From the IMG/VR virus record IMGVR_UViG_2684623171_000007: DNA of 20,162 bases; one strand, written 5' to 3'. The notes beneath the pieces are model-generated. The model saw only the letters and a list, made by a program, of their open reading frames with translations. It was not told the DNA's origin and did not search any database. This DNA comes from a virus (lineage: Duplodnaviria; Heunggongvirae; Uroviricota; Caudoviricetes). Positions 1 through 19,160 of this stretch are shown in pieces (the first letter of the stretch is position 1; every line of letters starts with the position of its first letter). The position numbers and the translations under genes were made by a program.

Positions 1-274
1 ATCTACAAGTGCCTTTTTCTGTCAGCGGTTCTCCTTTCCAGCCAATGAGAACCGTCAGGCGCGCGCCCCGTGGCGGTAGCTGCAACTGACCATCTGCATC
101 ATCCAGCGTGATGGTGAGCTGGTCCGCCTCAAATCCCCGGTTGTCGGTCAGTGACAGGCTCATCAGGCGCTCTGCCACGCCTGACAGCGTTTTACCCTCC
201 GCGAGAATATCAAAATCCGGCACTTTCACGTGGTCTGTGCCCTGACTGAGCAATTGCATGGTGGTGTCGGTCAT
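1..274 (-). CDS. D: tail protein D (P2 gpD-like), N-terminal part; gene continues beyond the window start
   Basis: Minus-strand ATG at ~272-274 preceded by a GGGAGGG Shine-Dalgarno. Translation MTDTTMQLLSQGTDHVKVPDFDILAEGKTLSGVAERLMSLSLTDNRGFEADQLTITLDDADGQLQLPPRGARLTVLIGWKGEPLTEKG contains the LTDNRGFEADQ / LDDADGQ block I recall from P2 gpD. Not in the ORF track because it runs off the window edge. Confidence 0.55.
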   Translation of the reverse strand, partial: MTDTTMQLLSQGTDHVKVPDFDILAEGKTLSGVAERLMSLSLTDNRGFEADQLTITLDDADGQLQLPPRGARLTVLIGWKGEPLTEKGTCR

Positions 275-1434
275 CTGTTCCCTCCCTGTGCGGCATGGTC
301 GCATGTGCGTGCGGAGGGGGTTACTGCTTTTTGTTGTCGCCGTGGCGGGAGAACGGCGCAGGGGTGAGATTACGCGAGTGGTGGGTGATGATTGTTGCCG
401 AATCATTTAACGGATACAAGGGGCTGAAGCTATGAGTGAAACTCGTTTTCATGGTGCCCGTGTTACGGAAAGTACCGACCTGGTAACAGCGATTAATGAT
501 GTTGATTCCAGTGTTATCGGTATCGTGGCAACGGCAGATGATGCGGACGCGGAGCTGTTCCCGCTGAACAAGCCCACACTGCTGACCCGCGTCAATGACG
601 TGCTGGGAAAATGCGGGACTACGGGGACGCTTTATCGTGCGCTTAAGGCTATCGCAGACCAGGTGAGCACAAAAGTGATCGTCGTTCGCGTGGCTGAACA
701 CAAAGAAGAAGGCGGTAAGACGCAGGATCAACTGGTTATCGGTGGTTCTGAATCTGACGGCAGCTATACGGGGATGTATGCGCTGCTTGTTGCAGAGCAG
801 GATGAAAGCATCGGATACCGTCCGCGTATTCTGGCCGCGCCGGAGCTGGACACGGAGGCGGTAACAAAATCCCTGTGCGTGATTGCGGGTAAACTGCGCG
901 CGTTTGTGTATGCCACATGTCATGGTTGTAACACGATGGCTGAGGCGATTACCTACCGCCAGAAATTCAACGAACGTGAGGTGATGCTCTTATGGCCTGA
1001 CTTCATCGCCTACAACCTGAAAAGTGGCAAAAACGAAACGTTCCCCGCGCCTGCTTATGCGTGCGGCCTTCGTGCGTACATTGACCATGAGCAGGGCTGG
1101 CACAAATCGCTGTCCAACGTTCCGGTTAAAAATGTGCTTGGGATGTCGAGGCATGTGTTCTGGTCGTTGCAGGCCGAAGACAGTGATGCCAACAGCCTCA
1201 ACAACAAAGAAATCACGACCATTATTCGTCGCAACGGGTTCCGCTTCTGGGGCAACCGCACACCGGAAACGAACGCCTACATCTTTGAGGTGTATACCCG
1301 AACCGCACAGGTGCTGGCTGATTCAATTGCGGAAGCGCAGTTTGAAACCATCGACAGTCCACTGACACCTGCGAACGTGAAGGATGTTATCAGTGCCATC
1401 AGGGCAAAACTGGATTCACTGGTTACTGCCGGGA

Positions 1435-1437
1435 AAC
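1435..1437. repeat. target-site duplication AAC, left copy
   Basis: AAC immediately outside the IS end at 1438; identical AAC at 2748-2750. A 3-bp duplication is typical for IS3-family elements. Confidence 0.75.
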
Positions 1438-1479
1438 TGAACCGCCCCGGGTTTCCTGGAGAGTGTTTTATCTGTGAAC

Positions 1480-2370
1480 TCAGGCTGCCAGATCATCGTT
1501 TCCGATGGAAGCATAATAAGCTTTTTCTGCTTCTGCCGGAGGAGTATGGCCCAGCCTTCCCAGCAATCGTCGATTGTTATACCAGTCCACCCACGTTAGT
1601 GTGGCCAGTTCCACTTCTGCACGGTTTTTCCAGCTCTTACGGTGTATTACCTCCGCTTTGTAAAGACCATTGATGCTCTCAGCCATCGCGTTGTCATACG
1701 AGTCGCCTGTACTCCCTGTTGATGCCAGTAATCCGGCTTCTTTTAGTCGCTCCGTATAGGCCAGTGACACATACTGAGAGCCTTTATCGCTGTGATGGAT
1801 GGTGCCAGACGGACGACGGGCCCACAACGCCTGCTCCAGCGCATCCAGCACGAATGTCGTTTCCATAGACGATGAGACCCGCCACCCCACGATGTATCCG
1901 GCAAACACATCAATGATAAACGCCACATAGACGAAGCCCTGCCATGTGCTGACGTAAGTAAAATCAGCCACCCACAGCTGGTCAGGTCGTTCTGCCACGA
2001 ACTGACGGTTTACGCGGTCGCCTGCGGCAACGGCTTTCCGGCTGATGGTCGTACGGACCTTTTTACCCCGGAGAACACCGGCAAGTCCCATAACCGCCAT
2101 GAGACGTGCCACTGTACATCTGGCCACCCTGATTCCTTCCCGTAACAACTGACGCCAGACTTTACGCACACCGTACACCTGATGATTTTCATCGTATACG
2201 CGCTGTATCTCTCTCTTCAGCCAGTCGTCGTGCTGCGCACGGGCACTGCGTTTATCCGGATGATGTCGCTGTTGCTGACAATGGTAATACGTTGACGGGG
2301 CAATATGCAGTTCGCTGCATACCGGTCCGACCCCGTACTGCTCACGCAGCTTATCCAGCAGTGGCATCAT
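1480..2370 (-). CDS. IS629-like transposase OrfB (catalytic part; normally expressed as an OrfAB fusion by -1 frameshifting in IS3-family elements)
   Basis: ORF track 296 aa in the -1 frame relative to OrfA, overlapping OrfA by 4 nt at an A6 run; contains the DDE-family motifs. Confidence 0.85.
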
Positions 2371-2693
2371 TTTTTCCAGAGGCGGTCGAACTCCGCCTTC
2401 GCAAAATAAGCGGAAGCCTGGCGAAGGATATCGTTACTGCGGCGCAGTTCACGATTTTCACGTTCCAGCTCTTTCAGACGCTGACGTTCAGCGCTGGTGA
2501 GCCCACCATCACCGCCCCCGGTATCCCGCTCATGCTGGCGAACCCAGACACGCAGAGTCTCCGGCGTACAGCCAATCTTTGGGGCAATGGAACAAATTGC
2601 CGCCCACTGTGAGTCATATTCATCCTGACTTTCCAGAACCATACGAATCGCCCGCTGACGGACTTCGGGGGAAAAACGAGTATTTTTAGTCAT
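2367..2693 (-). CDS. IS629-like transposase OrfA (HTH DNA-binding part)
   Basis: ORF track 108 aa: [98 protein letters not shown]. Stop overlaps the OrfB start in an A-rich run (GGAAAAAATGATG). Confidence 0.9.
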
Positions 2694-2747
2694 CCTGTTT
2701 ACCTCTTTCTCAGGGAGTTTAGTCTCCAGGATTTCCGGGGCGGTTCA

Positions 2748-2750
2748 AAC
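2748..2750. repeat. target-site duplication AAC, right copy
   Basis: AAC immediately outside the IS end at 2747; the FI reading frame resumes here. Confidence 0.75.
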
Positions 2751-2928
2751 TGATTGGCGCGGAGTGCTGGTATGACATCGAGGATAACAGCACCACGAAT
2801 TTACGTCAGGGGCGTGTGCGTATTCGCTACAAATATACGCCCGTTCCTCCGCTGGAAGACATGGAGCTTTACCAGTCGTTTACTGATGAATTCTTTGGTC
2901 CCGCATTTGCGGTGCTGGGAGGTGCCTG

Positions 2929-3441
2929 ATGGCTGTACCAAAACATCTTCGCTTTTTTACGCTGTTTGTGGATGGTGAAAACGAAGTGGGTAAGGTGACG
3001 TCCGTCACCCTGCCTAAACTGACGCGCAAAACCGACAGCTACCGGGGTGGTGGCATGATGGGTGCGGTAAGTATTGACCTCGGCCTGGACGACTCCGCGC
3101 TTGATGCGAGCTTTGTCATGGGGGGCGCAGTTCGTGAGCTGTTCCTGAAGTATGGCGGCACGATTGACGGCACGCTACTGCGTTTTGCGGGGGAATACTA
3201 CACCGATGATGAAAGCGACCTGTATGAAGTCGAAATGCGCGGACGTGTGACGGAAATTGATATGGGGGAAGCCAAACAGGGCGAAGCCACATCACACACT
3301 TACGCCATTAAAAACACCTACTACAAGCTGAGTGTTAACGATCGCCCGTTGTGGGAGATTGACCTGCTGAACTTCATTTACCGGAAGGACGGCAAGGACA
3401 TTGTGCCCGATCGCATCCGTTCCGCGCTTGGGCTTGGCTGA
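2929..3441 (+). CDS. FII: tail tube protein (P2 gpFII-like)
   Basis: ORF track 170 aa; ATG overlaps the FI stop (TGATG). Motifs TLPKLTRKTDSYRGGGMMGAVSIDLGLDD...LRFAGEYYTDDESD..EMRGR..EIDMGEAKQGE resemble P2 FII as I recall it. Position directly after the sheath gene. Confidence 0.85.
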   Translation: MAVPKHLRFFTLFVDGENEVGKVTSVTLPKLTRKTDSYRGGGMMGAVSIDLGLDDSALDASFVMGGAVRELFLKYGGTIDGTLLRFAGEYYTDDESDLYEVEMRGRVTEIDMGEAKQGEATSHTYAIKNTYYKLSVNDRPLWEIDLLNFIYRKDGKDIVPDRIRSALGLG

Positions 3442-3495
3442 TAAGTAATATGCAGGCGGCGCAGTGCGTCGCCTCTGACTGAAAGGAGTTTCCTG

Positions 3496-3861
3496 ATGAA
3501 AGAGACGAAAAACATCGATACCGAAAACACGGTAGTTACTGACACTGTGAAAGAAACCAGTGAGCGTGGTGTAAAACTTACCCAACCAATTGAGCGAGGC
3601 GGCGAAAAAATCACGTATGTGGAGATCACCGGGGCTATTGAGCAGGCTGGATCTCTGCGAGATTTGTCGCTGTCTGATGTGCTGAATCTGAAAGCGGAAT
3701 CCATGTTTACGCTGCTGTCACGCGTGACATCACCGCGACTGGATGAAGTGACGATCAAAAAAATGGCATCCCGTGACTTTATTCAGTTATGTGTGGTTGC
3801 CGTAAATTTTTTGAGCGGTGCGGACTCTGGCGGGAAGAACGAACAGGCGACGGAAGCCTGA
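3496..3861 (+). CDS. E: tail assembly chaperone (P2 gpE-like), zero-frame product
   Basis: ORF track 121 aa; GGAG-type Shine-Dalgarno upstream (GAAAGGAGTTTCCTGATG). Position between the tube and tape-measure genes; contains a TTTTTTG slippery heptamer near its 3' end. Confidence 0.7.
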   Translation: MKETKNIDTENTVVTDTVKETSERGVKLTQPIERGGEKITYVEITGAIEQAGSLRDLSLSDVLNLKAESMFTLLSRVTSPRLDEVTIKKMASRDFIQLCVVAVNFLSGADSGGKNEQATEA

Positions 3862-4025
3862 TCACGGTTGTGTGCTTTGAGCACATAGAAGACTTTGTGG
3901 CAGATATTGCCGTTATTTTTAACTGGTCGCCCGCCGAAATCTTCATGATGACGCCCGGCGAAGTGGTTAGCTGGCGTGAGCGGGCGGCACTTCGCAGCGG
4001 GAATGCAGACAATGAAGACTCTTGA
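3496..4025 (+). CDS. E': tail assembly chaperone E+E' fusion, predicted -1 programmed frameshift product (3496..~3812 joined to the -1 frame ending 4025)
   Basis: Heptamer T_TTT_TTG at ~3807-3813 is in the correct phase in the E frame (codons AAT TTT TTG). The -1 frame (ORF track 3789..4025) is open from the slip site for ~70 codons and ends just inside the start of the tape-measure ORF. The same G/GT-type arrangement and T6G motif are established for the P2 E/E' genes. Confidence 0.6.
3807..3813 (+). other. candidate -1 ribosomal frameshift slippery site TTTTTTG
   Basis: Seen directly in the sequence, phased X_XXY_YYZ in the E reading frame. Confidence 0.6.
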
Positions 4026-6815
4026 TATCCGGGTCGCTTTCAGCGCCGTTGACAGGCTGACCCGACCTGCCGAAAACGCACGCCGCCTGATGGGGCAGTT
4101 TGGTGACTCCATCCAGCGAACGCAGGGGGCGATCAAAAATCTCGAGCGTCAGGCGCGATCATTTGAGCGCGCCCGCGACGCTGTCAGTAAAGCGGATGCT
4201 GGCATCGTGAAAGCACGACGCCAGCTTAACGCCCTTAATCAGTTACAACGCACGGGTACAGTGCTCAGCGAAAAACAACAAAAGCTGATGCAGCAGTTAA
4301 GCACCCGGCTTGAACGCCTGAATGAATCGCGCACACGGGAAATTCAGAAAATGAGGGAACTTGGCGGAGAGCTGAAACGCCACGGCATTTCCCTGACAGG
4401 CAGCGATAACACCATTCAGCAGGCCATCAGACGCACCGAACAATACAACAACCAGCTTGAACGCGAACGGCAGGCGCTTGCGCGTGTAACGCAGGCGCGT
4501 GAGCGGTATTCGCACGCGCAGGAAACCGCGGGAAAACTGAAAACAGGTGGTGCGCTGGCAATTGGTGCGGCAGCGGCGGGCGGCTATGCTGCCGGGCGTT
4601 TTTTGCAGCCTGCGATCGGGTTCGGCAAAGAGATGTCCCGCGTTCAGGCACTGACGCGAATCGACAAAAACAGCCCGCAGTTTAAGGCGCTGCGTGAGCA
4701 GGCGTTAAAACTTGCTGAAACACAGTTTACTGCGAGTGATGCCGCCAGTGGGCAGAGCTTTCTGGCAATGGCTGGTTTTACTCCGCAGGCCATTCAGGCC
4801 GCATTGCCCGGTGTTCTTAATATGGCGCTGGCAGGTGGCGTCGAACTCGGCGAGACGGCTGATATAGGCTCCAATATCCTCACACAGTTCAACCTGACAG
4901 CCGATCAAATGGACCGGGTGGGCGATACGCTGACAGCAGCATTTACCCGGACCAATACTGATTTACGCGCGCTGGGCGAAACCATGAAGTATACCGGTCC
5001 GGTTGCCGCAAAACTTGGTATCAGTCTTGAAGAAGCGGCGGCCATGGCCGGGATGCTTGCCAATAATGGTCTTCGCGGAAGCGATGCTGGCACGGCCATG
5101 CGCGCAAGTCTGTCCCGCCTTGCATCACCGCCAAAAGCTGCGGCTGATGCACTGAAAGAGCTGGGGGTGTCAGTTGCTGAGGCCAGAGGCAAAATGCGCC
5201 CGATGGAGGATGTGCTGCTTGATCTCTATAAGGCGACACAAAAATACGGACAGGTGGACCAGGTCTCCTTCTTCAAGGACATCGCCGGAGAAGAGGCGTT
5301 CGTTGGTTTGCAGACGCTTGTTGCGGCGGCTGGTTCAGGAGAGCTGCAAAAACTGACCAGAGAATTGCAGGGGGCAAGGGGAGAGGCCGATCGCGTCGCA
5401 AAAGTAATGGCTGATAATCTTGATGGGGACCTGAAAAATCTCGACAGCGCATGGGAAGGTCTTCGTATTCGCATCAGTGATCTGGTTGACGGTCCGCTGC
5501 GTTCTGTCACGCAGTGGCTCACGCGGGTGCTTGAAAAAATCACCTCGCTGGCGCAGGCCCATCCGGTACTGACGCGCCAGCTACTGATAGCAGGCGGTGC
5601 GTTGCTGGCAATGACTGCAACGATTGGCTCGTTGTCGCTGGTTATTGGGGTGCTTTACGGGAAGCTGGCCACCCTGCGTCTTGGTTTTGACATTCTTACC
5701 CGGTCAATGAATGTCGTCAGGGTGTTACCTGCGCTATGGGGAATGGTGACGGGTTCCGTTTCTTTACTGGGAGGCGTTATCGGGGCGTTGTTCAGTCCGG
5801 TTGGTCTTATCGTGGCTGCGCTTGCCGGAGCTGCCGTTCTTATCTGGAAATACTGGGATCCTATCAGGGCTTTCTTTGCCGGGGTGTTCAGCGGGATTAT
5901 GGAAAGGCTGACCCCGTTGCGCGACACCTTTGAACGGTTTGGCCCTGTTTTTGACGTAATCGGAAGCGGTTCAGCCAGGTGTTTAACTGGTTTAAATCGC
6001 TGCTGTCACCGATGGAGTCCAGCAAGGAAACGCTGGATAAATGTACCAGTGCTGGCGAGGTATTCGGTAACGTTCTTGGTGGTGCGTTACAGCTTGTTCT
6101 GACGCCTGCAAAAATGTTGCTGGATACGCTGGCGTGGATACTTGAAAAACTCGGTGTGCTTCCGGATGAAGCGGAAAGGGCGCGCAAGAAAATCGAAGAC
6201 GCACAACGTGCGGCCATTCTTCAGGACAAGGTTGCTCTGTTTCAGGGAGACATTGCGAAAATCAATCCGCCGAAGTCTGCGGGAAATAGCAATGGCACCG
6301 GAGATGATAAACCCAAAGACAACAAACCTCTCACAGACAGCAATACCGGCACGCTACGCAGACTCAGCAAAATTGCTGATAACACAGGTAAGCTGGTTGA
6401 TGAGACAAAAAAACGCATTGGCCCCGGCGATATTGTCTTTAAGAACCTGCCCCGCGCACTTGCTGTTCGTGGGGAGTGGCAGGAGCGGAAGATTGCGCAG
6501 GTCAGTAAGCCTGCCCCCGCAATTAATATCACACCCGTGGTCCCGGCTCCGCTGCCTCCGGCGCTGGTCCCTGTTGTTGCGGCCAGCTCCCGCCCGGTGG
6601 TGGAGGCCATACGATCGCCAGTGGCATCAGTTCCTGCAACTTCCCGTAACCGGGAGCCTGTTGCCTCCGGATTTGGCGGTGAAATTCATGTTCATCTGCA
6701 TAACGTTGTTACGCAGAATCCCCGCGAACTGGCGAAACTGGTCGGCGAAATGGTCAGGGCAGAAATGGAACGGCGCGCCCGTGCCAGGCGTGGCAGTTTT
6801 TACGATAAAGATTGA
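3976..6815 (+). pseudogene. T: tail tape measure protein (P2 gpT-like), split into two frames by an apparent 1-bp frameshift near 5966-5980
   Basis: ORF track 3976..6102 (708 aa, GTG at 3976; alternative in-frame ATGs at ~4003 and ~4012) is coiled-coil-rich with a long hydrophobic stretch, as expected for a tape measure. ORF 5979..6815 (278 aa) continues in the -1 frame with no gap. Around GGAAGCGGTTCAGCCAGGTG, one extra T (GGTTTCAGC) would give a continuous ..FDVIGSGFSQVFNWFKSLL.. reading. The C-terminal frame ends 13 nt before the U gene. Confidence 0.7.
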
Positions 6816-6827
6816 GGAGTCATGGCC

Positions 6828-7316
6828 ATGATGATGATCTACGGCATGTTTGTTTTTGAGCTGCGCACGTTGCCGCATCAGCAGTTACAGCAAAACAAAA
6901 GCTGGCGACATGTGAAAAATGAACGCGTTAACCGTTCAGCAAGCTGGCAGTATATCGGTGCAGGTGATGATCGCATCGTTCTTTCTGGTGTTCTTTATCC
7001 TGAGATTACTGGTGGCGAAGTGTCGCTGTCGTTGTTGACCACGCAGGCATATACAGGACGTCCTTGGCCTTTGATTGATGGCGTCGGGCAGATTTACGGC
7101 ATGTATGTCCTGACCGGAACGAATACGACCCGCTCCGAGTTTGATCGCTACGGTAAGGCGAAAAAGATAGAATTTTCACTGACTCTTGAACGCTGTGATG
7201 AGGATTTGCGGGAGCGCCTGCAATCCTCATCGTTCAGCGATATGCTGTCCGGCTTCAAAGATAAGGTGACATCATCCCTTAATAGCGCGGCCAGCTCAGT
7301 TAAGGGGCTGCTCTGA
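6828..7316 (+). CDS. U: tail protein (P2 gpU-like)
   Basis: ORF track 6822..7316. GAGGAG Shine-Dalgarno at ~6814-6819 is best spaced for the ATG at 6828 (MMMIYGMFVFELRTLP...). Motifs YPEITGG and WPLIDGVGQIYGMYVLTG resemble P2 gpU as I recall it. Confidence 0.8.
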   Translation: MMMIYGMFVFELRTLPHQQLQQNKSWRHVKNERVNRSASWQYIGAGDDRIVLSGVLYPEITGGEVSLSLLTTQAYTGRPWPLIDGVGQIYGMYVLTGTNTTRSEFDRYGKAKKIEFSLTLERCDEDLRERLQSSSFSDMLSGFKDKVTSSLNSAASSVKGLL

Positions 7317-7439
7317 TTTAACGTATGTCGCCAATTTCCTGATGAAGGTGACTGGCGACTTGCTGTTGTATGTCCTTCTCAGAAAATTGTTTTTGAATAA
7401 CAAATAACAGGATTTTATAATCTCTTAACCTTATAACAT

Positions 7440-8045
7440 GTGTGGTCTGAAATAATAATTAAGGAGATTATCGTGCTATCTTACTTAATGGCAATTCACT
7501 TTGTTTTATTTGGAAACTCTACTAATTTAAAAAACTTCTGGAAACATGAAGTAATTCGGCGGAAACGTATGGATATCTGGAGGCTTTTAAGAGAGAAAAA
7601 ACAGCGTAACCGGAATTTCCTTTTCTGGTGGCGGTTGGCTAACGAAATGTATATTAATGGTAATAAATTACATAAGAAAGCAGCCAAAAAGTTAAACAGT
7701 AAAATAATTAACAAGTTTGGTTGTGAAATAGGATTGGGCGCAAATATTGGAAAAGGGTTGACAATTCCCCATCATGCTGGAATTGTTGTTCATTTTGCTG
7801 TTGATGCGGGTGAAAATCTGGTATTACGACAGAATACTACCATTGGACAGATAGATGGTGATATGCCTAGTTCAAGAGTAAAAATTGGTAGTAACGTTGA
7901 TATCGGAGCTAATTGTTGCATCATTGGATTATCACGTAAAATTGGGGATAATGTAAAAATAGGTGCAATGTCTTTTATAAATAAAGATATACCATCAAAC
8001 TGCACATATATAACTAAAAAGAGTGGTGTTGTATTGTATAAATAG
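7440..8045 (+). CDS. hexapeptide-repeat (left-handed beta-helix) acyltransferase, serine/sugar O-acetyltransferase-like; low-GC cargo gene
   Basis: ORF track 201 aa. Likely true start is GTG at ~7473 after AAGGAG (MLSYLMAIHF...). Tandem hexapeptide [LIV]-G-x-x-x-x pattern (GCEIGLGANIGKGLTIPHHAGIVVHFAVDAGENLVLRQNTTIGQIDG...VKIGSNVDIGANCCIIG..KIGDNVKIGAMSFI) typical of the CysE/WcaB/LacA acetyltransferase family. The segment 7320-8090 is visibly AT-rich compared with the flanking tail genes. Confidence 0.7.
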   Translation: MWSEIIIKEIIVLSYLMAIHFVLFGNSTNLKNFWKHEVIRRKRMDIWRLLREKKQRNRNFLFWWRLANEMYINGNKLHKKAAKKLNSKIINKFGCEIGLGANIGKGLTIPHHAGIVVHFAVDAGENLVLRQNTTIGQIDGDMPSSRVKIGSNVDIGANCCIIGLSRKIGDNVKIGAMSFINKDIPSNCTYITKKSGVVLYK

Positions 8046-8054
8046 AGTACATAA

Positions 8055-8090
8055 AGCCATCGATATTTCTGTCGATGGCTTTTTCTTTTT
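8055..8090. terminator. candidate bidirectional rho-independent terminator between convergent genes
   Basis: Perfect 9-bp stem AGCCATCGA / TCGATGGCT with an 8-nt loop, followed by TTTTTCTTTTT on the plus strand and preceded by an A-rich run. Lies between the acyltransferase stop (8045) and the tfa stop (8089). Confidence 0.55.
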
Positions 8091-8621
8091 ATTGTGGGGC
8101 GACTGGCCACTCAACATCCGCTGCTACTGTTGTATCAACACGATTCAACAATACCCGATATGTCTTCCATGCAGCCAGTAACGATGCCTCTTCCTCCGTC
8201 GCAATATCCAAATCTACGGCATCCTGAAGTGGCGCAATATGCTCACTGGCTACCTGCATCAGGCTGTTTTTTGTTTCTTCTGCCTCCCGTACCCGAAACA
8301 GTTTTTCTGCTTCTGCATCTTTCGCCCAGGATGTGCCGTTCCACTTCTGACACTCTCCATCCGGCGACAACCAGGTAACATTTTCCGGTAACGGACCGAG
8401 TTCAGAAATAAATAACGCGTCGCCGGAAGCCACGTCATAAACCGTTTTACCCCGATGATCTTCAACGAGATGCCACGATGCCTCATTACTGTTGAAAACA
8501 GCCACGAAGCCAGCCGGAATATCTGGCGGTGCAATATCGGTACTGTTTGCTGGCAGACCTGTATGAGGCGGAATGTATGCGTCACCTTCACCAATAAATT
8601 CATTAGTTCCGGCCAGCAGAT
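8089..8621 (-). pseudogene. tfa: tail fibre assembly protein (Tfa, P2 gpG-like), 5'-truncated by the IS629-like insertion at 8622
   Basis: ORF track 8089..8505 (GTG-initiated) ends ..[30 protein letters not shown], the characteristic Tfa C-terminus. The same frame stays open upstream to the IS boundary (..[45 protein letters not shown]..), matching the internal part of Tfa proteins as I recall them; about 15-20 N-terminal codons and the start codon are missing. Confidence 0.85.
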
Positions 8622-8675
8622 TGAACCGCCCCGGGAATCCTGGAGACTAAACTCCCTGAGAAAGAGGTAAACAGG

Positions 8676-9002
8676 ATGACTAAAAATACACGTTTTTCCC
8701 CCGAGGTCCGTCAACGGGCAGTCCGTATGGTTCTGGAAAGTCAGGGCGAATATGACTCACAATGGGCGGCAATTCGTTCCATTGCCCCAAAGATTGGCTG
8801 TACACCAGAGACTCTGCGTGTGTGGGTTCGTCAGCATGAGCGGGATACCGGGGGCGGTGATGGTGGACTCACCACCGCTGAACGTCAGCGTCTGAAAGAG
8901 CTGGAACGTGAAAATCGTGAACTGCGCCGCAGTAACGATATCCTTCGCCAGGCTTCCGCTTATTTTGCGAAGGCGGAGTTCGACCGCCTCTGGAAAAAAT
9001 AA
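8676..9002 (+). CDS. IS629-like transposase OrfA (copy 2)
   Basis: ORF track 108 aa; differs from copy 1 OrfA at 4 residues (V16, G24, R34, T67 versus I, D, C, S). Confidence 0.85.
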
Positions 9003-9678
9003 TGCCGCTGCTGGATAAGCTGCGTGAGCAGTACGGGGTCGGACCGGTATGCAGTGAACTGCATATTGCCCCGTCAACGGATTACCACTGTCAGCAACAG
9101 CGACATCATCCGGATAAACGCAGTGCCCGTGCGCAGCGCGATGACTGGCTGAAGAGAGAGATACAGCGCGTATACGATGAAAATCATCAGGTGTACGGTG
9201 TGCGTAAAGTCTGGCGCCAGTTGTTACGCGAAGGTATCAGGGTGGCCAGATGTACAGTGGCGCGCCTCATGGCGGTTATGGGACTTGCCGGTGTTCTCCG
9301 GGGTAAAAAGGTCCGTACTACCGTCAGCCGGAAAGCCGTTTCCGCAGGCGACCGCGTAAACCGTCAGTTCGTGGCAGAACGTCCTGACCAGCTGTGGGTG
9401 GCTGATTTTACTTACGTCAGCACATGGCAGGGCTTCGTCTATGTGGCGTTCATCATTGATGTGTTTTCCGGATGTATCGTGGGGTGGCGAGTCTCATCGT
9501 CTATGGAAACGACATTCGTGCTGGATGCACTGGAGCAGGCGTTGTGGGCCCGTCGGCCGTCCGGCACAGTCCATCACAGTGATAAAGGTTCTCAGTATGT
9601 ATCACTGGCCTATACGGAGCGACTAAAAGAAGCAAAACTGCTGGCATCAACAGGGAGTACAGGTGACTCGTATGACAA
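9002..9678 (+). pseudogene. IS629-like transposase OrfB, C-terminally truncated (copy 2)
   Basis: ORF track 9002..9691 (229 aa); the last residues (..DSYDNVFY*) are read from non-IS sequence, so the conserved C-terminal ~70 aa of OrfB are missing. Confidence 0.8.
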
Positions 9679-9710
9679 TGTATTTTATTAGTTCACATAC
9701 AATTATCAGA

Positions 9711-10025
9711 TTATTCTGGGAATAAGGTCTGAATATTCTTTTTTATTTTATAAAAATTGCATTCAACTCCGCTAGGCTGATTAGCCTGGTATGTTTCCTT
9801 GATGCTAACGGTATTGAAGGGGAGGTTGTCCTCTGGCCATTCGGCCATCCAGTAGGCAAATGCTGGGTTGCGCTTTATGAGTGCTAGCCCAGCCAGAAAG
9901 GCCGCGCGTTGCGCGCGGCTGCGTTCGGAGGCTGGCAGGCTATCGAGGTAATTGCACGCCTCCTGTTCACTCTTGACGGCGGCGGGCTTCAGATAGAAAC
10001 TTATCCGTCTGGTTGGTGTCGTCAT
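9711..10025 (-). CDS. parR: ParR/StbB-like centromere-binding partition protein (ribbon-helix-helix)
   Basis: ORF track 104 aa; starts 5 bp after the parM-like stop. N-terminal half (RRISFYLKP...LDSLPASERSRAQRAAFLAGLAL) resembles ParR of plasmid R1 as I recall it (..TIAFKLNP..LDSIPQGERSRLNRAALTAGLAL..). The C-terminal third is divergent and encoded by AT-rich DNA next to the IS junction. Confidence 0.6.
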   Translation of the reverse strand: MTTPTRRISFYLKPAAVKSEQEACNYLDSLPASERSRAQRAAFLAGLALIKRNPAFAYWMAEWPEDNLPFNTVSIKETYQANQPSGVECNFYKIKKNIQTLFPE

Positions 10026-10029
10026 TGGT

Positions 10030-10989
10030 TTACTCCTTGTTCATTGCGTACAACCCATTAACCAGAGCAAACTGTGGCACCCCGTCCGCGATGAAAGTCG
10101 CATTAACTCCGCAGGCTTCGCGGATAGCGGTTGCCACAATCTCCGCCCCGCCACCGACAACCATCACCCGCCCGTAACCCGAAAAAACCGCCAGCGCGCG
10201 GATCACGCGTTGTTTCAGTGTTTCTTCCTTTTCACGAATAACCGCCATCAGGCTGGCGTAATGCGCGTCATTGTGGATGTGCTGGCGCAGCCAGGCTTCA
10301 TCATGGCGATGTTCGATAATGGTATTGGCGATGTGGTGACTGGTGCGCATACCGTTAGTGGCCATCACCGACAGTACGGCATCGGCCATCAGAGAAACGC
10401 CTACGTGTGGATCGCAAAACACCTGGCTGATACCTGCCAGTTGCCCCTGAACCTTTGCCACATCCAGCGTGGTTCCGCCCAAATCCACAATCAGCAGGGA
10501 TTCAAACGGACTCATGTCAGCCAGTGCCTTAAAGCCAGCAGGAATGGATTCAGGCATAACCCGTACGTTACGGATAGTGAATGCTTCGCCGTTCTGGTAC
10601 TCCACCGGGCGCATGACGTTCGCTTTTTTGCGGTTGATGTTGGCCATGTCCGGCTGTGCGTTTGTATCGAAATACTCGCTCAGTGGCAGGGTGACAACCA
10701 CATCCACTTCCTGTGGTGTGATGCCTGATTTGACCAGCGCGTGATGAATGGCAATTACATTCACATCGCTGTACTGGTATTGCGTGTCGGTCGTCTGGAC
10801 AAAGCGATCGCTGACCGGATCAAAACCATAGCGCACGCCATCAAGCATGTAGTTCGCGGGCTGCGTGCCACCGAATGGCGCAGACCATTCCGACTTGAAG
10901 CTGTTCGGGCTGATGGCGTTGCGGCGTTCGCCGTTCTCAGTCCATGCCAGCTTGATGTTGGTGGAGCCGTCGTCGATACAAATTTTCAT
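10030..10989 (-). CDS. parM: ParM/StbA-like actin-type partition ATPase
   Basis: ORF track 319 aa with AAGGA Shine-Dalgarno. Family-defining blocks IDDGSTNIKL, ISPNSF, YQYSDVNVIAIHHAL, MPESIPAG, LIVDLGGTTLD, GVSL, FSGY..VMVVGGGAE and LVNGLY align with R1 ParM/StbA as I recall it. Confidence 0.85.
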   Translation of the reverse strand: MKICIDDGSTNIKLAWTENGERRNAISPNSFKSEWSAPFGGTQPANYMLDGVRYGFDPVSDRFVQTTDTQYQYSDVNVIAIHHALVKSGITPQEVDVVVTLPLSEYFDTNAQPDMANINRKKANVMRPVEYQNGEAFTIRNVRVMPESIPAGFKALADMSPFESLLIVDLGGTTLDVAKVQGQLAGISQVFCDPHVGVSLMADAVLSVMATNGMRTSHHIANTIIEHRHDEAWLRQHIHNDAHYASLMAVIREKEETLKQRVIRALAVFSGYGRVMVVGGGAEIVATAIREACGVNATFIADGVPQFALVNGLYAMNKE

Positions 10990-11023
10990 GTCGCTTTTCC
11001 TTATGTTGATTAATTAATCGGTT

Positions 11024-11132
11024 ACAGGATTTTTAAATCCCGCTTTTGCCTGTTTTGTGCGCGCTTCATATATCGCGGCGCGTTTTTTGCTCATTTACGG
11101 GATTTGTGAGTCCCGTTTCTGTCTGTTTTTTG
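11024..11132. repeat. two ~36-bp direct repeats, each with internal dyad symmetry, upstream of parM (candidate parC-like centromere/operator or tandem hairpins)
   Basis: Copy 1 ~11024-11059 ACAGGATTTTTAAATCCCGCTTTTGCCTGTTTTGTG; copy 2 ~11097-11132 ACGGGATTTGTGAGTCCCGTTTCTGTCTGTTTTTTG (about 27 of 36 positions identical). Cores GGATTT..AAATCC and ACGGGA..TCCCGT are inverted repeats followed by T-rich tracts. Copy 2 lies inside the last ~20 codons of gene A. Confidence 0.4.
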
Positions 11133-13888
11133 TTTCCACTGGTCAGGCCACCCCGCAGCAGGTCTGCTTTGCGGCTGGCGCGTTCAGTGGTTTCACTGAT
11201 TCTCTGTGCGTGCTCTGCGTCGCGGATGGCGCGCAGCATGTCAGAAAGCACGGTAACGGGTGTTTTCATGGTGTTCTGGTCCTGCTGAAGTGTGGATGCC
11301 AGGCGTGCGGCGGCTTCAGGGTCTGATGCCCCCAGCTGTGCCAGATAGCTGGCGACCGGGTTATGGCGGATCTCCGTGCTGCTTACGCCATGATTACGGC
11401 TCAGGCGCTGCCAGAGCTGCGTGATTCGGCTGTCCGGGCGGGTATCCGGTTTGCGTACAATTTCAAATCCCTGCGGTGCAATGATGCTGCCGTCAACGTA
11501 CAGACTGCCGCCCCGTAACAGGTGCTGCATCTGTTGTTCACCGATATGCAGGCCGAGAGATTCAGCAGACTCCCGCCATTCTTTAGCGAGTAATTCGTGG
11601 TTATCAGGCAAAGGCCGCTGCTGTTTGCGGCTCTGTGTCCAGCTCTGCATTTCATCACTGCTGTTTTTTGCCTGTTTGTCACGAAGCGAACGCATCAGCG
11701 CCCGGCGTTCGTGCCGTTTCAGTGAGCGCATCCATTCGTTCACGTCAACGCCGTCAGGAAGCTGCGGCCACGGTGCTGGCCGTTCTTCCGGCTGTTCTGT
11801 CCCGTTGTTGTCCGTTTCCTGTACACGGGGACAGTTATTGCCACGAGTCCAAGGGGCGGCAGGGCCGCCCTGAAGGTCAAAACCATTTTCGCGGGCGCTG
11901 TCTTCTACTCCCGGTTTACGTCTTACCAGCTTCCAGTTATCCGGGTGCGTGCACACACGGGAGGATTCCCCGATGAGTGGTGACCAGATCCCGTAAATCT
12001 GTACGCTCTGTTCGCCGTAATCGTTCAGCTCATCTGCGAGGTCGTAGGCGGTGCGAATCAGGTAGTCCTTGCGTGGAACAAGTACGCCTCCCTGTTTCTC
12101 AATGTAGGTGGTAAAACATCCGGCATCAGCGGCAGCAAGAACCGCATCCATTGCGTCATCCTTCAGCCGTTGCGGGCCTTCCGGGTTGCGTGCCATCTGG
12201 CTGGCAAGGCGACGCAGTTCACGCCACACCTGACGGGAGGGGATGCCAAAGAACTGGAACTGGCGGACCCGGTGAAGGCGCGCCCAGCCAATGGCGCGTT
12301 CCACGCTCTCGGTCATTGATTTTCCGGTTTCGTGGTCAACGCGTGGTTTGCCTGTTTTCGGGTCGATGCCATCCACGGCGCGGCTGTCCAGGTTTTTTCC
12401 GATGTAGGTGGCGATGTAGCTGGTTGGCGTGCCTTTTGAGCCGTCGACATACTCCGCCTTAAAGCGCGGAGTAATATCATCGCCCAGCTCGTGACGATCT
12501 TCCTGAATGGCAATATCGCGGGTGTGGGACACAATGGTGTCGATTTCTTCCGGATGAGCAAAGACCATCATATGCCAGTGCACGGTGCCGTCATGGTGAG
12601 GCTCCACCGTGCGGATGCCATACCAGCGCAGGCCGTCGCGGTTCAGTTTCTTGCGGACCGCCGCAAAAAACGTGTTAACCAGGTAATCGCTGGAGTCGCG
12701 CATGGTGGCCCCGTTCCATTTGGGATTCGGATGACCGTTCTCTGTTGTAGCGTGGTATTTTGACGGGCAGGTGACAGTCAGAAACACCGCTTTGTCGCCA
12801 CGGGCTTCGGCCAGAAGTTCCAGCCCCTTCATGGTGGCCATCATTTCTGCCTTACGGTGAACCGGGTTACTTACTCCCGCGTAATACACTGTCTCGAGAT
12901 CAATCGTGAACCCGTCTTCGTTTTCCAGCATGAAACTTTTCAGGAAATCGCGTGTTTTCTCGCGCTGTGCGCGAAACTCGCTTAACGCGTCCTGGCTCAG
13001 ATAGGGCGATGTTTTTCTGGAAACCAGACAGGCGGCGCGGAGTTGTTCTTCTCTCCACTCGCAACGTAACAGCCACAGTTTGCGTTTCCACCATTCCGCA
13101 CAGGTCAGGCGAAGGATTGCGCCCGGCAGCAGCTCCGTGTCCGGTTCGTTCCTCCGGTCTTTGTCTGTTGTCAGTGCGTCATAATGTGGAGGCATGGCGT
13201 GCAGGTGTAACGCCATGCGGGCCAGCATCTGATACGCCTTCAGCGTTACATCCATGGTCAGTTCGCCATCGGTCGCGCCAAAGCCATCGCAGAGTTTTTC
13301 GAAGGTGCTGCTGAACATCGCCGCCGTCATGGTGGCCAGCGTCTGTATCTGGTGTTTGTTGAGCTGCGGCAGGTAAAGCAAATCGTCCAGGCGTTCGCGT
13401 CCGGCAAGGGAGCGATAACCCTGTGTCAGCCAGCGGTGATCGGTGCGCTCCAGACGTTCGAATATTTTGCGCAGGTTTCCGCGCGCGTAGCGTTCAGCCT
13501 GCCAGCTCTTTTTGCCTTTCTGACGATCGGCTTCCTGTTTTTTGCGCAGGAAGGAGAGGTGGCGAATAAGCGGATCGCGCAGATAGGACGGCAGCAGGCG
13601 CAGCGAGGCCATGGCTTCATCCACCGCACCGCGTGCCTGTTTTCTGGCGTCTCCTGCCAGTGTGATGGTTTTGTCCTGTTTTTCCTGTGCGTCCAGGCTT
13701 TTATTAATCAGGTTGCCCAGCGGCGTTGCGGAGAACGCCGCATCAGCCATTTCCTGGCGGCGCTCGTTCTCTACCCGGTAGGCATCCAGCCAGGAGGAAA
13801 GCGCGGATTCAGGAGCGGGGATCCCCGTTCCTTCACGCCCCACTGCGTGGCGCGGTTGTTGCCAGTCCCTGATGTACTCTGCCGTCAT
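11066..13888 (-). CDS. A: replication initiation endonuclease (P2 gpA-like, HUH rolling-circle initiator)
   Basis: ORF track 940 aa. Contains an HUH-type motif (DGTVHWHMMVF) and a downstream tyrosine motif (TPTSYIATYIGKNLDS), the arrangement established for P2 A-family initiators. Sits at the distal end of the early operon as in P2. It is longer than P2 A as I recall it (~760 aa), so the real start or C-terminal tail may differ. Confidence 0.8.
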   Translation of the reverse strand: MTAEYIRDWQQPRHAVGREGTGIPAPESALSSWLDAYRVENERRQEMADAAFSATPLGNLINKSLDAQEKQDKTITLAGDARKQARGAVDEAMASLRLLPSYLRDPLIRHLSFLRKKQEADRQKGKKSWQAERYARGNLRKIFERLERTDHRWLTQGYRSLAGRERLDDLLYLPQLNKHQIQTLATMTAAMFSSTFEKLCDGFGATDGELTMDVTLKAYQMLARMALHLHAMPPHYDALTTDKDRRNEPDTELLPGAILRLTCAEWWKRKLWLLRCEWREEQLRAACLVSRKTSPYLSQDALSEFRAQREKTRDFLKSFMLENEDGFTIDLETVYYAGVSNPVHRKAEMMATMKGLELLAEARGDKAVFLTVTCPSKYHATTENGHPNPKWNGATMRDSSDYLVNTFFAAVRKKLNRDGLRWYGIRTVEPHHDGTVHWHMMVFAHPEEIDTIVSHTRDIAIQEDRHELGDDITPRFKAEYVDGSKGTPTSYIATYIGKNLDSRAVDGIDPKTGKPRVDHETGKSMTESVERAIGWARLHRVRQFQFFGIPSRQVWRELRRLASQMARNPEGPQRLKDDAMDAVLAAADAGCFTTYIEKQGGVLVPRKDYLIRTAYDLADELNDYGEQSVQIYGIWSPLIGESSRVCTHPDNWKLVRRKPGVEDSARENGFDLQGGPAAPWTRGNNCPRVQETDNNGTEQPEERPAPWPQLPDGVDVNEWMRSLKRHERRALMRSLRDKQAKNSSDEMQSWTQSRKQQRPLPDNHELLAKEWRESAESLGLHIGEQQMQHLLRGGSLYVDGSIIAPQGFEIVRKPDTRPDSRITQLWQRLSRNHGVSSTEIRHNPVASYLAQLGASDPEAAARLASTLQQDQNTMKTPVTVLSDMLRAIRDAEHAQRISETTERASRKADLLRGGLTSGNKKQTETGLTNPVNEQKTRRDI

Positions 13889-13894
13889 AGTGAT

Positions 13895-14260
13895 TTACTT
13901 CGTCATGCCATTCAGGGTGTCGCGGCAGGCTGTAGCCAGCCGCTGAATTTCCAGCACGGTGTCTTCTGTGTCGGCATGGCGATGTGTGATGCGGATGCTG
14001 TCGGCAATCACATCGACGATTGCAGAGGATGGGCGCTGGTAAATGCCAATAACGGACGGGGTGCCACCTTCAATGCGGTAAAGCCTGTAATTTCCCTCGT
14101 GGCTGTCAATCATGTAGCGACCATCAATAACAATCTTTCCGTCAGCGAGCTGCGGTACAGGCAGGGATTTCAGGTACATGTCATAACGATCACGCACGCG
14201 AGCGGCAAGATCACGTTCTGTGTTGAGCAGGTATTCAAGAAAGTCGTTGGCGAGAATCAT
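13895..14260 (-). CDS. hypothetical protein (early operon, immediately upstream of A)
   Basis: ORF track 121 aa, same strand and tightly spaced with A; no family recognised by eye. Confidence 0.45.
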   Translation of the reverse strand: MILANDFLEYLLNTERDLAARVRDRYDMYLKSLPVPQLADGKIVIDGRYMIDSHEGNYRLYRIEGGTPSVIGIYQRPSSAIVDVIADSIRITHRHADTEDTVLEIQRLATACRDTLNGMTK

Positions 14261-14332
14261 TGCGGCAATCCTCTTGTTACAGATGTGCGAAGGCCTCCCG
14301 CCGCAAGGTGCAGGAAAGGCCCGGAACAGGAA

Positions 14333-14563
14333 TTAATGGAGTTTGTTTTGCTGCTGGATGAGCTGTTGAAACTCGTGCAGATCATCCGCCAGATAGCTGA
14401 AAACAGAGGCGGAATAAATGTTTGATAGTGCGTGGCTGCGCTCATGCAGCATATTGATGTGCATGATTTGCGCGACGCGTGATGCGCGGGAAAGTCTGCG
14501 GTTGATTTCAGTCTGGATGTGACGACGCTCCGCGATAGCGCGGTGCTGTTTGCGGTCTGCCAT
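14333..14563 (-). CDS. hypothetical small basic protein (76 aa)
   Basis: ORF track; AAGAGG Shine-Dalgarno about 8 nt upstream of the ATG. Preferred over the overlapping 205-aa ORF 14257..14874, which has low-complexity composition. Confidence 0.4.
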   Translation of the reverse strand: MADRKQHRAIAERRHIQTEINRRLSRASRVAQIMHINMLHERSHALSNIYSASVFSYLADDLHEFQQLIQQQNKLH

Positions 14564-14740
14564 GGTGTGGCCTCTTTGCTCGGTGATAGAAATAACTCAC
14601 CATCCAGAGTTGAGAATCTCGGGGTGGCGAGACGTACAGGGTTCTCAACACCGGAGAGCAAAGAATCCGGCCCGACCGAAGTCGGCCCCGTACGCCCCGC
14701 CATAATTCTGACGCGAAAAAGACGTGGCAATACAGTACGC

Positions 14741-14764
14741 ACAAAAAAACCGCTAGCGCGGTTA
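14741..14764 (-). terminator. candidate rho-independent terminator on the minus strand
   Basis: On the minus strand: 6-bp stem AACCGC/GCGGTT with a 4-nt loop, followed by TTTTTTT (plus strand reads ACAAAAAAACCGCTAGCGCGGTT). Confidence 0.4.
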
Positions 14765-14835
14765 TGCGCTTTGCTCTGTATCGGGTTGAGAATCCCGGCA
14801 CCCGTTTTATGAGGTGCAGCGGAAATGTAACCTGA

Positions 14836-14864
14836 CCGATTGCGGCATGGCAAGCGGTTTTTTT
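14836..14864 (+). terminator. candidate rho-independent terminator on the plus strand (antisense to the early operon)
   Basis: CCGATTGC-GGCATG-GCAAGCGG (8-bp stem with one mismatch, 6-nt loop) followed by TTTTTTT. Confidence 0.4.
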
Positions 14865-14885
14865 GTGTGTGCATGTTCTGGTTTC

Positions 14886-15185
14886 TTACTGGTTCAGAAA
14901 AAAATCAAAAACGTTATCGATGCGTTGCAGCAGCTCTTGCTGCATTGCTTCCGGCGTTTCCGGTTCGCCAGGTGCCCCCAGCGTTGCGCAGAAATCAGCG
15001 ATTTCATGATGGAGCGTGAGGCGAATGGCAGGAGCCGTGGTTCTGGCGTGCTCCAGCTGATCCAGCAGTGCCAGCACAGCAGACGGCGAGAGCATTGCGC
15101 GAAATGCCAGTAATTTTTGAGGCGTTGCCATTCGTTGCAGGGCAAATGCCAGTTCGCGTAGCTTCTGGTGGTTGATGGTGCTCAT
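14886..15185 (-). CDS. hypothetical protein
   Basis: ORF track 99 aa; 4-bp overlap with the upstream ORF 15182..15448 suggests an operon. Confidence 0.45.
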   Translation of the reverse strand: MSTINHQKLRELAFALQRMATPQKLLAFRAMLSPSAVLALLDQLEHARTTAPAIRLTLHHEIADFCATLGAPGEPETPEAMQQELLQRIDNVFDFFLNQ

Positions 15186-15448
15186 GCTCTGGCTTCCTTC
15201 AGTAGCTGGTTAAACATGTGAGTAAGTGGATTGCTACACCCGAACGGCATCGGGTTTACGTGGTAAGAAGCCTGGCCTCCTGTTTTGCGAGCGCGACCAC
15301 CTGTGCTGCGGTTTGTTCTGATGACTAAGCCGCCGCGCCAAAGTCGGCGTAACTCAGCATTAATGGCTGTGGTTGGGGTATTCAGTGCTGCGGCGATCTC
15401 TCCGCCGCTACACCCCGGATGAGTAGCGATGTAGTCCAGAATGGTCAT
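15182..15448 (-). CDS. putative winged-helix DNA-binding protein
   Basis: ORF track 88 aa; N-terminus (ILDYIATHPGCSGGEIAAALNTPTTAINAELRRLWRGGLVIR) has a helix-turn-helix/wing pattern. Function not assignable by eye. Confidence 0.45.
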   Translation of the reverse strand: MTILDYIATHPGCSGGEIAAALNTPTTAINAELRRLWRGGLVIRTNRSTGGRARKTGGQASYHVNPMPFGCSNPLTHMFNQLLKEARA

Positions 15449-15648
15449 CTGCGTGGCTCCTGTACCTGTCGGATAAGATTTACTCGCGCCACGTTGGTGG
15501 CGCAGAAGTAAGTGCCGTCAGTGAGGTAGATGTGGTGTGCATCCTTTTCCGAACGATGTTTGTCGATAGTGGTAATCAGGCGTTCGTCGACCTCGTATTC
15601 GCGCCCTCTGGAGGTAAAGCGAACGACGGGAAAATGCTTAATTGCCAT
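15445..15648 (-). CDS. hypothetical protein
   Basis: ORF track 67 aa; 4-bp overlap with the downstream ORF. Confidence 0.4.
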   Translation of the reverse strand: MAIKHFPVVRFTSRGREYEVDERLITTIDKHRSEKDAHHIYLTDGTYFCATNVARVNLIRQVQEPRR

Positions 15649-15671
15649 TGCGCCCCCTTTGTCCAGTAACC

Positions 15672-16088
15672 CTATGCGTTAAATACGGCACGTTGCGCGT
15701 CATCAATGAATACAGCTTGAGAGCGTTCTATCAGGCGGAGATTTGTCAGAAGCTCTGACTCTTTTGTGTGGTAAGGCGTTATCAGGTATTTGCCGTGCAG
15801 TTCGGCAATAATGGTGTATTGCAGCATCATTGCTGAACCAAGAATATAAATGCAGCGTCCAATGCTGGACGGATTCATGGCTGCAACTGTTGACTGTGTT
15901 TTAAGAGTGTCGATTTCTTTGCTCTGTTCCTCAATAACTTTGGCTGCTTCAGGGGTGGCTATTGCGATGGTCAGTGCGTAAAGCGCTGCCATATGTTGAT
16001 TATCTTTCTGGGCTGCCCTGGACAGCTTGTCTTGCTCTGCTGACACTATTTTTAATGTATTGATAATATTTTTTTCTTTTGCGTTCAT
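15672..16088 (-). CDS. hypothetical protein
   Basis: ORF track 138 aa; GGAG Shine-Dalgarno (GGAGATATAAAATG); AT-rich coding region. Confidence 0.5.
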   Translation of the reverse strand: MNAKEKNIINTLKIVSAEQDKLSRAAQKDNQHMAALYALTIAIATPEAAKVIEEQSKEIDTLKTQSTVAAMNPSSIGRCIYILGSAMMLQYTIIAELHGKYLITPYHTKESELLTNLRLIERSQAVFIDDAQRAVFNA

Positions 16089-16180
16089 TTTATATCTCCG
16101 TTATTTACGTGTGCGAATACCTCCGCGAATGCGGATAGTTTTCAGGTTTTCGGGTTTAATCTGGTGTTCTGTTTAAGCTG

Positions 16181-16294
16181 TTATTTGTCAGTGAAAAAGC
16201 GTTCAATCTTTTTTACTGAATGAATAATTCGCATAATCCCAATGGCGCAGGCCACCGAAATAATCAGAACAAGCCATGAGATAAATATACTCAT
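16181..16294 (-). CDS. small hydrophobic membrane peptide, 37 aa (MSIFISWLVLIISVACAIGIMRIIHSVKKIERFFTDK), not in the ORF track
   Basis: Read by eye. ATG overlaps the TGA stop of ORF 16291..16533 (ATGA), suggesting translational coupling. One predicted transmembrane helix followed by a basic tail. Coordinates approximate to 1-2 bp. Confidence 0.4.
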   Translation of the reverse strand: MSIFISWLVLIISVACAIGIMRIIHSVKKIERFFTDK

Positions 16295-16533: not shown

Positions 16534-16544
16534 CGCAACGCCCT

Positions 16545-16823: not shown

Positions 16824-16833
16824 AAAGCACCTG

Positions 16834-17184: not shown

Positions 17185-17205
17185 GATGGTGCTCTGTTCA
17201 TTGTT

Positions 17206-17409: not shown

Positions 17410-17425
17410 CCCACTAGCCTCCTGA

Positions 17426-18112: not shown

Positions 18113-18127
18113 TAGTAGGGAGGTGAC

Positions 18128-18778: not shown

Positions 18779-18807
18779 TCTTACTTGAGCTAAATTGAGG
18801 TAATGAT

Positions 18808-19155: not shown

Positions 19156-19160
19156 CTAAA

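Follow-up and report, generated by a model that had tools for sequence, protein, structure and literature searches.

Layout of the tail block and its relatives

The window analysed here, a stretch of 20,162 nucleotides deposited as IMG/VR virus record IMGVR_UViG_2684623171_000007, is a decayed prophage of Escherichia coli O157:H7, from the P88-like branch of the family Peduoviridae. Its left part carries the phage tail genes FI, FII, E/E', T and U as a block on the plus strand (432–7316), set between a fragment of the gpD gene (7–274) and the tail-fibre assembly gene tfa (8089–8621), both of which lie on the minus strand. Positions 1–10000 match many chromosomes of E. coli O157:H7 at 100% identity, with 276 genomes covering at least 80%, and in strain FRIK944 the element is bordered on the left by tRNA-Leu and a copy of the insertion sequence (IS) IS30, and on the right by yecA. 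The gene calls listed below are those on which the RefSeq annotation of FRIK944, made with the Prokaryotic Genome Annotation Pipeline (PGAP), and Pfam agree; they bear out the layout given for this block in a preliminary description of the window. Phage P88 and the prophage of E. coli 2010C_5028, to which some of the features are compared, are described further on.

7–274, minus strand: 5' fragment, about 89 codons, of the gene for gpD (baseplate hub / late control D); a PGAP pseudogene in FRIK944
275–431: divergent D/FI intergenic region, 157 bp
432 to about 1439, plus strand: 5' part of the tail sheath gene FI (Pfam Phage_sheath_1 and Gp18_domIII_N; 97.7% identity to P88)
1438–2747, minus strand: IS1203 (IS3 family), 1310 bp, within FI (PGAP, transposase domains, 25-bp terminal inverted repeats)
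2748–2929, plus strand: 3' part of FI, colinear with P88 and the 2010C_5028 prophage directly past the IS
2929–3441, plus strand: tail tube gene FII (Pfam Phage_tube, E 1.3e-47)
3496–3861, plus strand: tail chaperone gene E
-1 frame, open to 4025, plus strand: tail chaperone gene E' (Pfam Phage_P2_GpE on 3870–4025)
4012–6815, plus strand: tape measure gene T (Pfam PhageMin_Tail, 3976–6102; 'frameshifted' in PGAP)
6828–7316, plus strand: tail gene U (Pfam Phage_P2_GpU, E 1.5e-38)
8089 to about 8621, minus strand: tail-fibre assembly gene tfa, the equivalent of P2 G (Pfam Caudo_TAP, E 5e-40)

Because Pfam gave no match for the 90-residue D fragment, its identity was set by BLASTP, which returned 59% identity to residues 15–85 of P2 gpD (E 4e-26) and 93% identity to the intact D of the 2010C_5028 prophage; colinearity of the fragment with P88 begins at window position 7. 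A slippery heptamer (T TTT TTG, 3807–3813) lies near the end of E, and E' is read in the -1 frame and overlaps the 3' end of E, an arrangement that on our reading of the nucleotides appears to be the -1 programmed frameshift architecture conserved in P2. The window has homologues of the whole contractile-tail set of the Peduoviridae (sheath, tube, GpE chaperone, tape measure, GpU and GpD), and the single colinear operon from FI to D that typifies P2 is found neither in the window nor in any phage of the P88 clade that we examined.

The P2 late region runs V-W-J-I-H-G, then fun(Z), then FI-FII-E-E'-T-U-D-ogr, all colinear. When the window was compared with P2 by blastn, the match to D fell on the strand opposite to the matches to FI and T; from these matches and the P2 gene order, the inversion relative to P2 takes in FI–U and nothing else, as the preliminary description had recognized. 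The FETUD operon of P2 and the tail genes of the window share the gene set FI, FII, E/E' (with the -1 frameshift), T, U and D at 42–49% protein identity, and in P2, as in intact phages of the P88 branch, D is followed by ogr. However, the seven genes of P2 form one colinear operon transcribed from P_F, whereas in P88-like phages FI–U is inverted and D(-ogr) stands apart, divergent from FI.

The closest phages to the window are P88 and other members of the genus Xuanwuvirus, which are 91–97% identical to it over positions 7–7322 with the IS excluded. In P88 (NC_026014), the plus-strand genes H and tfa precede an alternative tfa'/H' cassette and a gene for a DNA invertase, after which come U-T-E'-E-FII-FI on the minus strand (27600–33175) and D on the plus strand (33333–34433). 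P88 is an inducible, plaque-forming phage with a contractile tail and a burst size of about 65 (PMC5285337); the P88-like Citrobacter phage phiSM is likewise functional (PMC6456863), and SEN4/5 are published as plaque-forming. The Xuanwuvirus phages P88, 500465-2, PhiR44_2, P884B11 and phiSM have the D / FI-FII-E-E'-T-U / tail-fibre order of the window on the same strands, with 93–97.7% identity in the retained tail genes and about 96% in the replication and partition genes. Blastn blocks colinear with P88 on both sides of a 16.6-kb deletion in the window recover the Xuanwuvirus order int-C-cox...A-parM-par / tfa / U-T-E-FII-FI / D. Genera of the International Committee on Taxonomy of Viruses (ICTV) require a genome-wide identity of about 70% or higher; the window is 85–97.7% identical to P88 over all retained homologous segments, about half of the genome being deleted. 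Unlike P88, the window contains IS30, IS1203, a frameshift in T, the 16.6-kb deletion and an acetyltransferase gene after U; missing from it are ogr, the DNA invertase and P88's alternative H'/tfa' cassette.

The same order extends beyond this genus to Klebsiella phage ST16-OXA48phi5.4 (Reipivirus), Enterobacter phage phiT5282H (Novemvirus) and Salmonella phage SEN5 (Senquatrovirus), such that representatives with the divergent order span four ICTV genera; divergent D and FI were recovered by blastn as one place in 43 phage records, down to about 69% nucleotide identity. In these phages ogr lies directly downstream of D, as annotated in ST16-OXA48phi5.4 and phiT5282H and as found by tblastn in P88 and SEN5. 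The ogr of P88 is unannotated in RefSeq; it is an 86-residue Ogr/Delta zinc-finger open reading frame at 34476–34733, with 98.8% identity to the ogr that is annotated near D in 2010C_5028 (tblastn).

The counterpart in E. coli 2010C_5028 (NZ_CP074879, 3.405–3.437 Mb) is an apparently intact prophage, integrated like the window prophage between tRNA-Leu and yecA. On its minus strand come hok, ogr, a YecA-family gene and D, followed by FI, FII, E, E', T, U and an acetyltransferase gene on the plus strand and then by tfa, H, I, J, W, V and onward on the minus strand; window positions 7–1440, 2747–8622 and 9880–13281 are colinear with it at 93–98% identity. The two prophages thus share site, order and the U-acetyltransferase-tfa module, but the late genes of the 2010C_5028 prophage are all intact, and ogr, hok and the YecA-family cargo gene have been kept. 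That cargo gene, annotated 'YecA family protein' (12123–13262 of the 2010C_5028 locus), lies between ogr and D in a prophage that itself sits next to the chromosomal yecA, and is not found in the O157 copy.

Within the P88 branch the order is therefore ...V-W-J-I-H-tfa on one strand, U-T-E'-E-FII-FI on the other and D-ogr on the first, and all members that we examined have FI–U inverted with respect to P2. We hold with high confidence that the FI–U order of the window is native, inherited and fixed in the P88-like branch, the window being a decayed O157:H7 copy. The preliminary description had explained the order by an inversion in this element, with breakpoints at about 275–431 and 7317–7440, while noting that the same order in related intact prophages would speak otherwise; intact P88-like phages and prophages do share it, and that explanation does not stand.

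The order as such is already known, as it can be read directly from deposited genomes that carry annotation and an ICTV classification, and for this window the finding is an ordinary one: the usual order of a classified phage lineage in a known defective element of O157:H7. The orientation of the block goes undiscussed in the open-access papers that we consulted on P88, phiSM, SEN4/5, Sp13 and the P2/P4 hotspots (2026), the last of which describes P2-like phages as 'extremely conserved' in core-gene organization. The divergent D/FI junction marks the P88-like clade and gives no grounds to flag a rearrangement or a misassembly, and P2 is not a universal gene-order template for the Peduoviridae.

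Origin of the divergent order

Both arrangements were sought by running the U and D proteins of P88, fused as one query, against all phage records. Of the 521 matching records, 387 have U next to D in colinear order; these phages come from hosts such as Escherichia, Klebsiella, Yersinia, Salmonella, Burkholderia, Ralstonia, Pseudomonas, Mannheimia and Xanthomonas, and their D is at most 51% identical to that of P88. In the records with U and D split, D is 62–100% identical to that of P88. These distributions suggest that the colinear order is probably ancestral. Between P88 and P2, protein identity in the block and in D (FI 46%, FII 42%, U 46%, D 49%) is similar to that outside the block (Q 47%, P 44%, N 41%, V 47%, J 54%). 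Because the divergence from P2 is uniform inside and outside the block, an inversion in place fits better than the arrival of a foreign module, and the simplest reading would be one old inversion of FI–U in the ancestor of the enterobacterial sub-clade.

An improbable but more durable alternative than those taken up below is that FI–U was replaced by an oppositely oriented module from another phage, or that the divergent order came first and the P2 order derives from it. In P2-like genomes the tail-fibre and cargo hotspot beside U lies in a mosaic region, which would favour such a replacement. However, FI, FII and U are as far from their P2 counterparts (42–46%) as the head, baseplate and D proteins are (41–54%), which argues against replacement, and the colinear order occurs in the 387 records from many beta- and gammaproteobacterial hosts whereas the split order occurs only in enterobacterial phages.

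The D/FI spacer as a putative late promoter

If an ancient inversion did carry P_F-FI-FII-E-E'-T-U as a unit, it would have split the FETUD operon of P2 into two divergent units, FI–U and D(-ogr), separated by a spacer of 154–157 bp that contains a single dyad-symmetric site resembling an Ogr box. In the window this site reads as follows.

335–352, plus strand: Ogr-box-like dyad TGTCGCCGTGGCGGGAGA (TGT-N12-AGA), one mismatch from TGT-N12-ACA

The consensus of P2 late promoters that depend on Ogr/Delta is TGT-N12-ACA (PMC3931495). Exact matches to it in the window come to one (16028), which lies outside the region and is fewer than expected by chance; the box with one mismatch was recognized through alignment across genera. 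Spacers of 154–157 bp separate D and FI in the Xuanwuvirus, Reipivirus and Senquatrovirus representatives, and across three genera an 11-nt block, TTTTTGTTGTC, is invariant and is followed by ...AGA(A/C)C, the rest of the alignment having diverged. A dyad of the same kind occurs at the same position in P88, 2010C_5028, phiT5282H and ST16-OXA48phi5.4, and in SEN5 it is a perfect TGT-N12-ACA; the 157-bp spacers of P88 and the window differ at one position and have the same box. Sheath starts annotated in RefSeq for ST16-OXA48phi5.4 (1560–1686) and phiT5282H (13242 to about 13290) are apparently placed too far upstream when set against the conserved start ATG(A/T)(G/C)TGAAACTCG of P88 and ST16, and shrink the apparent D/FI spacer to 28 bp and 108 bp, respectively; for phiT5282H the blastn alignment puts the annotated FI start about 45 bp too early.

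The pattern TTGTTGT-N12-AGA[AC] occurs at two sites only in the 41.8-kb 2010C_5028 locus, namely in the D/FI spacer and in the P_O/P_P equivalent, where the scaffold and large-terminase genes diverge; in P88 it occurs at the same two sites, together with one N13 variant. From the centre of the D/FI box to the start codon is 69.5–76.5 bp for D and 81.5–88.5 bp for FI (the annotated FI start of phiT5282H excluded), to be compared with 73.5 and 81.5 bp in the P/O spacer of the same phages and with 78.5 and 95.5 bp at the mapped P_P and P_O of P2. In late promoters of the P2 type that depend on Ogr/Delta, the dyad is expected ahead of the gene at about -55 relative to the transcription start. No sigma-70-like promoter was found by a scan of 275–431, and the want of a good -35/-10 pair in the spacer implies that transcription from it would depend on an activator.

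The P_P/P_O region of P2 thus resembles the D/FI spacer in having one activator dyad between two divergent late operons, with a similar position of the box and a length of 173 bp as against 154–157 bp; it differs in that P_P/P_O has been mapped experimentally, whereas the D/FI region is predicted and has an AGA half-site in most members. By analogy with the one activator site that serves both P_P and P_O in P2, the single dyad would drive both FI–U and D(-ogr) late in infection, and the spacer is probably a bidirectional Ogr-dependent late promoter. It follows from such a promoter that D is probably not orphaned in intact phages. The preliminary description had D separated from its operon: D indeed no longer lies downstream of U, but it stays with ogr.

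Joining these observations, we give about even odds to the proposal that a single inversion of P_F-FI–U founded the clade comprising Xuanwuvirus, Reipivirus, Novemvirus and Senquatrovirus and was tolerated since the symmetric Ogr site of P_F would at once act in both directions, so that a one-way late promoter became a two-way one serving FI–U and D(-ogr). Several points weigh against the shared promoter and the single inversion. Members from Escherichia, Klebsiella and Enterobacter have TGT-N12-AGA and not ACA as their box; the third late operon of P88 (baseplate/V) yielded no equivalent box with the patterns used, and the definition of the motif may be incomplete; that D and FI would share one bidirectional promoter is deduced from sequence comparison; and a single ancient inversion is argued from parsimony and from the bands of D-protein identity rather than from a rooted phylogeny. 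If the proposal is true, the clade would be a natural case in which the symmetry of an activator site rescued an operon split by inversion, and of this we found no explicit account in the open-access literature that we searched. The conserved Ogr-box-like site offers a simple, testable prediction as to how a late operon can be split without loss of regulation.

The case against an inversion in this prophage; decay and cargo

The other accounts of the order would place its cause in the window itself, and we consider each of them extremely unlikely. According to the first, FI–U is actively invertible, either by a recombinase of the Gin/Hin/Cin type or by recombination between two inverted copies of an IS3-family element. 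Two inverted IS copies are indeed present, IS1203 at 1438–2747 on the minus strand and a remnant that begins at 8622 on the plus strand, with ends that are 93% complementary over 91 nt, and P88 has a DNA invertase adjoining U. The P88 enzyme, however, flanks the H/tfa tail-fibre cassette and not FI–U, and the invertase is absent from the window, 2010C_5028, ST16-OXA48phi5.4, phiT5282H and SEN5. The IS3-family pair could in principle flip 2748–8621, and the junction expected from that event occurs in 0 of the 5,426 complete E. coli genomes that we searched. Of these genomes, 1,424 contain the D/FI family and 1,115 contain the native divergent junction in one piece, whereas a synthetic query for the flipped state, with D joined to the reverse complement of U, matched none as a single place. 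We also considered the P88 invertase as the agent that had inverted FI–U, and rejected it, the invertase not being conserved in the clade.

A site-specific invertible segment is recognized by repeats at its ends, by an invertase and by the occurrence of both orientations among isolates; none of the three was found here. No inverted repeats pair 275–431 with 7317–7440, where the preliminary description had suggested looking for repeats or recombinase sites; the best inverted pair nearby, of 15 nt (172–186 and 6782–6796), lies within coding sequence, and the only real inverted repeats of the window are the ends of IS1203 and the two IS copies. No serine invertase of the Gin/Hin/Cin type is annotated or was found in the window, and the block holds no recombinase gene. 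The idea that it might be an active invertible segment, raised in the same description, finds no footing in these results.

A recent inversion of FI–U (about 7 kb) within this prophage, with breakpoints in 275–431 and 7317–7440, would account for the orientation relative to P2 in an element otherwise much rearranged by IS, but the order and the junctions are the same in intact relatives (97.7% identity to P88 across D/FI), positions 2747–8622 align continuously with the intact 2010C_5028 prophage, the order recurs in four genera and the proposed breakpoints have no inverted repeats. Equally remote is the juxtaposition of two prophages, in which the truncated D fragment (1–274), abutting IS30 as it does, would come from a separate adjacent element: D, the 157-bp spacer and FI form one uninterrupted stretch that is colinear with P88 (97.7% across the junction), 500465-2, phiSM and others, and equally so with the intact prophage at the same chromosomal site (2010C_5028, 97.9%).

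Whereas the order is inherited, the tail module of this copy is dead. Its lesions, which we mapped against the apparently intact 2010C_5028 prophage, had largely been overlooked in the preliminary description (IS1203 in FI, the deletion in T, the cut of D by IS30 and the loss from tfa, together with the acetyltransferase gene). At the left edge IS30 cuts D off at about position 7, so that only 268 bp of D is left, and hok, ogr and the YecA-family gene are gone with the rest; tblastn detected no ogr in the window or in the O157 locus, and ogr has been lost here through the IS30-associated deletion. The IS1203 in FI is flanked by a 3-bp target duplication, AAC. In T, a 1-bp deletion near 5967 (GCGGG to GC-GG) is the cause of the annotated frameshift, and a further, in-frame deletion of 3 bp lies at about 4714. 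Beyond the block, the following element truncates tfa.

8622 to about 9679, plus strand: truncated IS3-family (IS629/IS1203-like) copy, inverted relative to the IS in FI (PGAP, transposase domains)

This remnant marks the 16.6-kb deletion, which has taken the first 15 or so codons of tfa through H and the baseplate, lysis, head and packaging/portal genes; the alignment of tfa ends at position 21801 of the 2010C_5028 locus, 45 bp short of the start of that tfa. The best description of the O157 copy is that it derives, by decay, from a prophage like that of 2010C_5028. To the right of the remnant lies the rest of the element.

9711–20162, mixed strands: par, parM, replication gene A, early and immunity genes
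19161–20162, plus strand: integrase gene

ParM and partition genes (9711–10989) and a P4 epsilon-like 'derepression protein' (14333–14563) thus occur in an integrated P2-like prophage, and both are also found in P88.

We infer that the window prophage is Sp13 of strain Sakai, whose counterpart in EDL933 we take to be CP-933T; the identification follows from Sp13 being the sole P2-like prophage in O157. No difference was found between the window and the published description of Sp13: both are P2-like and defective, are without most morphogenetic genes and have a P4 epsilon-like derepression gene. Sp13 is reported as the sole P2-like prophage of O157 Sakai, with most morphogenetic genes missing and with an ogr homologue noted in Sp2 and not in Sp13 (PMC2669165). 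It still excises and replicates after mitomycin C, an unusual induction for which the P4 epsilon-like gene was suggested as a possible cause, and the paper contains no integration-site or IS terms (PMC2669165).

Homology of the P88 type stops at position 7322, 6 bp past the stop codon of U, and tfa converges on the unit formed by U and the acetyltransferase gene. Between U and tfa lie the following features.

7393–8082, plus strand: AT-rich cargo ('moron') unit, about 40% GC
7393–7421, plus strand: sigma-70-like promoter of the cargo gene, TTGAAT-17-TATAAT (promoter scan)
7473–8045, plus strand: hexapeptide-repeat / serine O-acetyltransferase-like gene (Hexapep match below the Pfam cutoff; name from PGAP)
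8053–8082: terminator with a 13-bp stem (scan)

Across the clade the convergent U/tfa junction (7317–8088 in the window) is a variable cargo site. It holds the invertase and the alternative tail-fibre cassette in P88, the acetyltransferase gene in the O157 and 2010C_5028 prophages, a DUF262 protein and a hypothetical protein in ST16-OXA48phi5.4 (7346–10311) and no cargo in phiT5282H (18968–19121) and SEN5 (5026–5228). The site is the positional equivalent of the Z/fun hotspot of P2. The acetyltransferase and tfa together form a module that is 91% identical to that of two larger Escherichia phages of 81–100 kb, vB_EcoM-Ro157c2YLVW and JL22, and the acetyltransferase-like gene may be a lysogenic-conversion gene.

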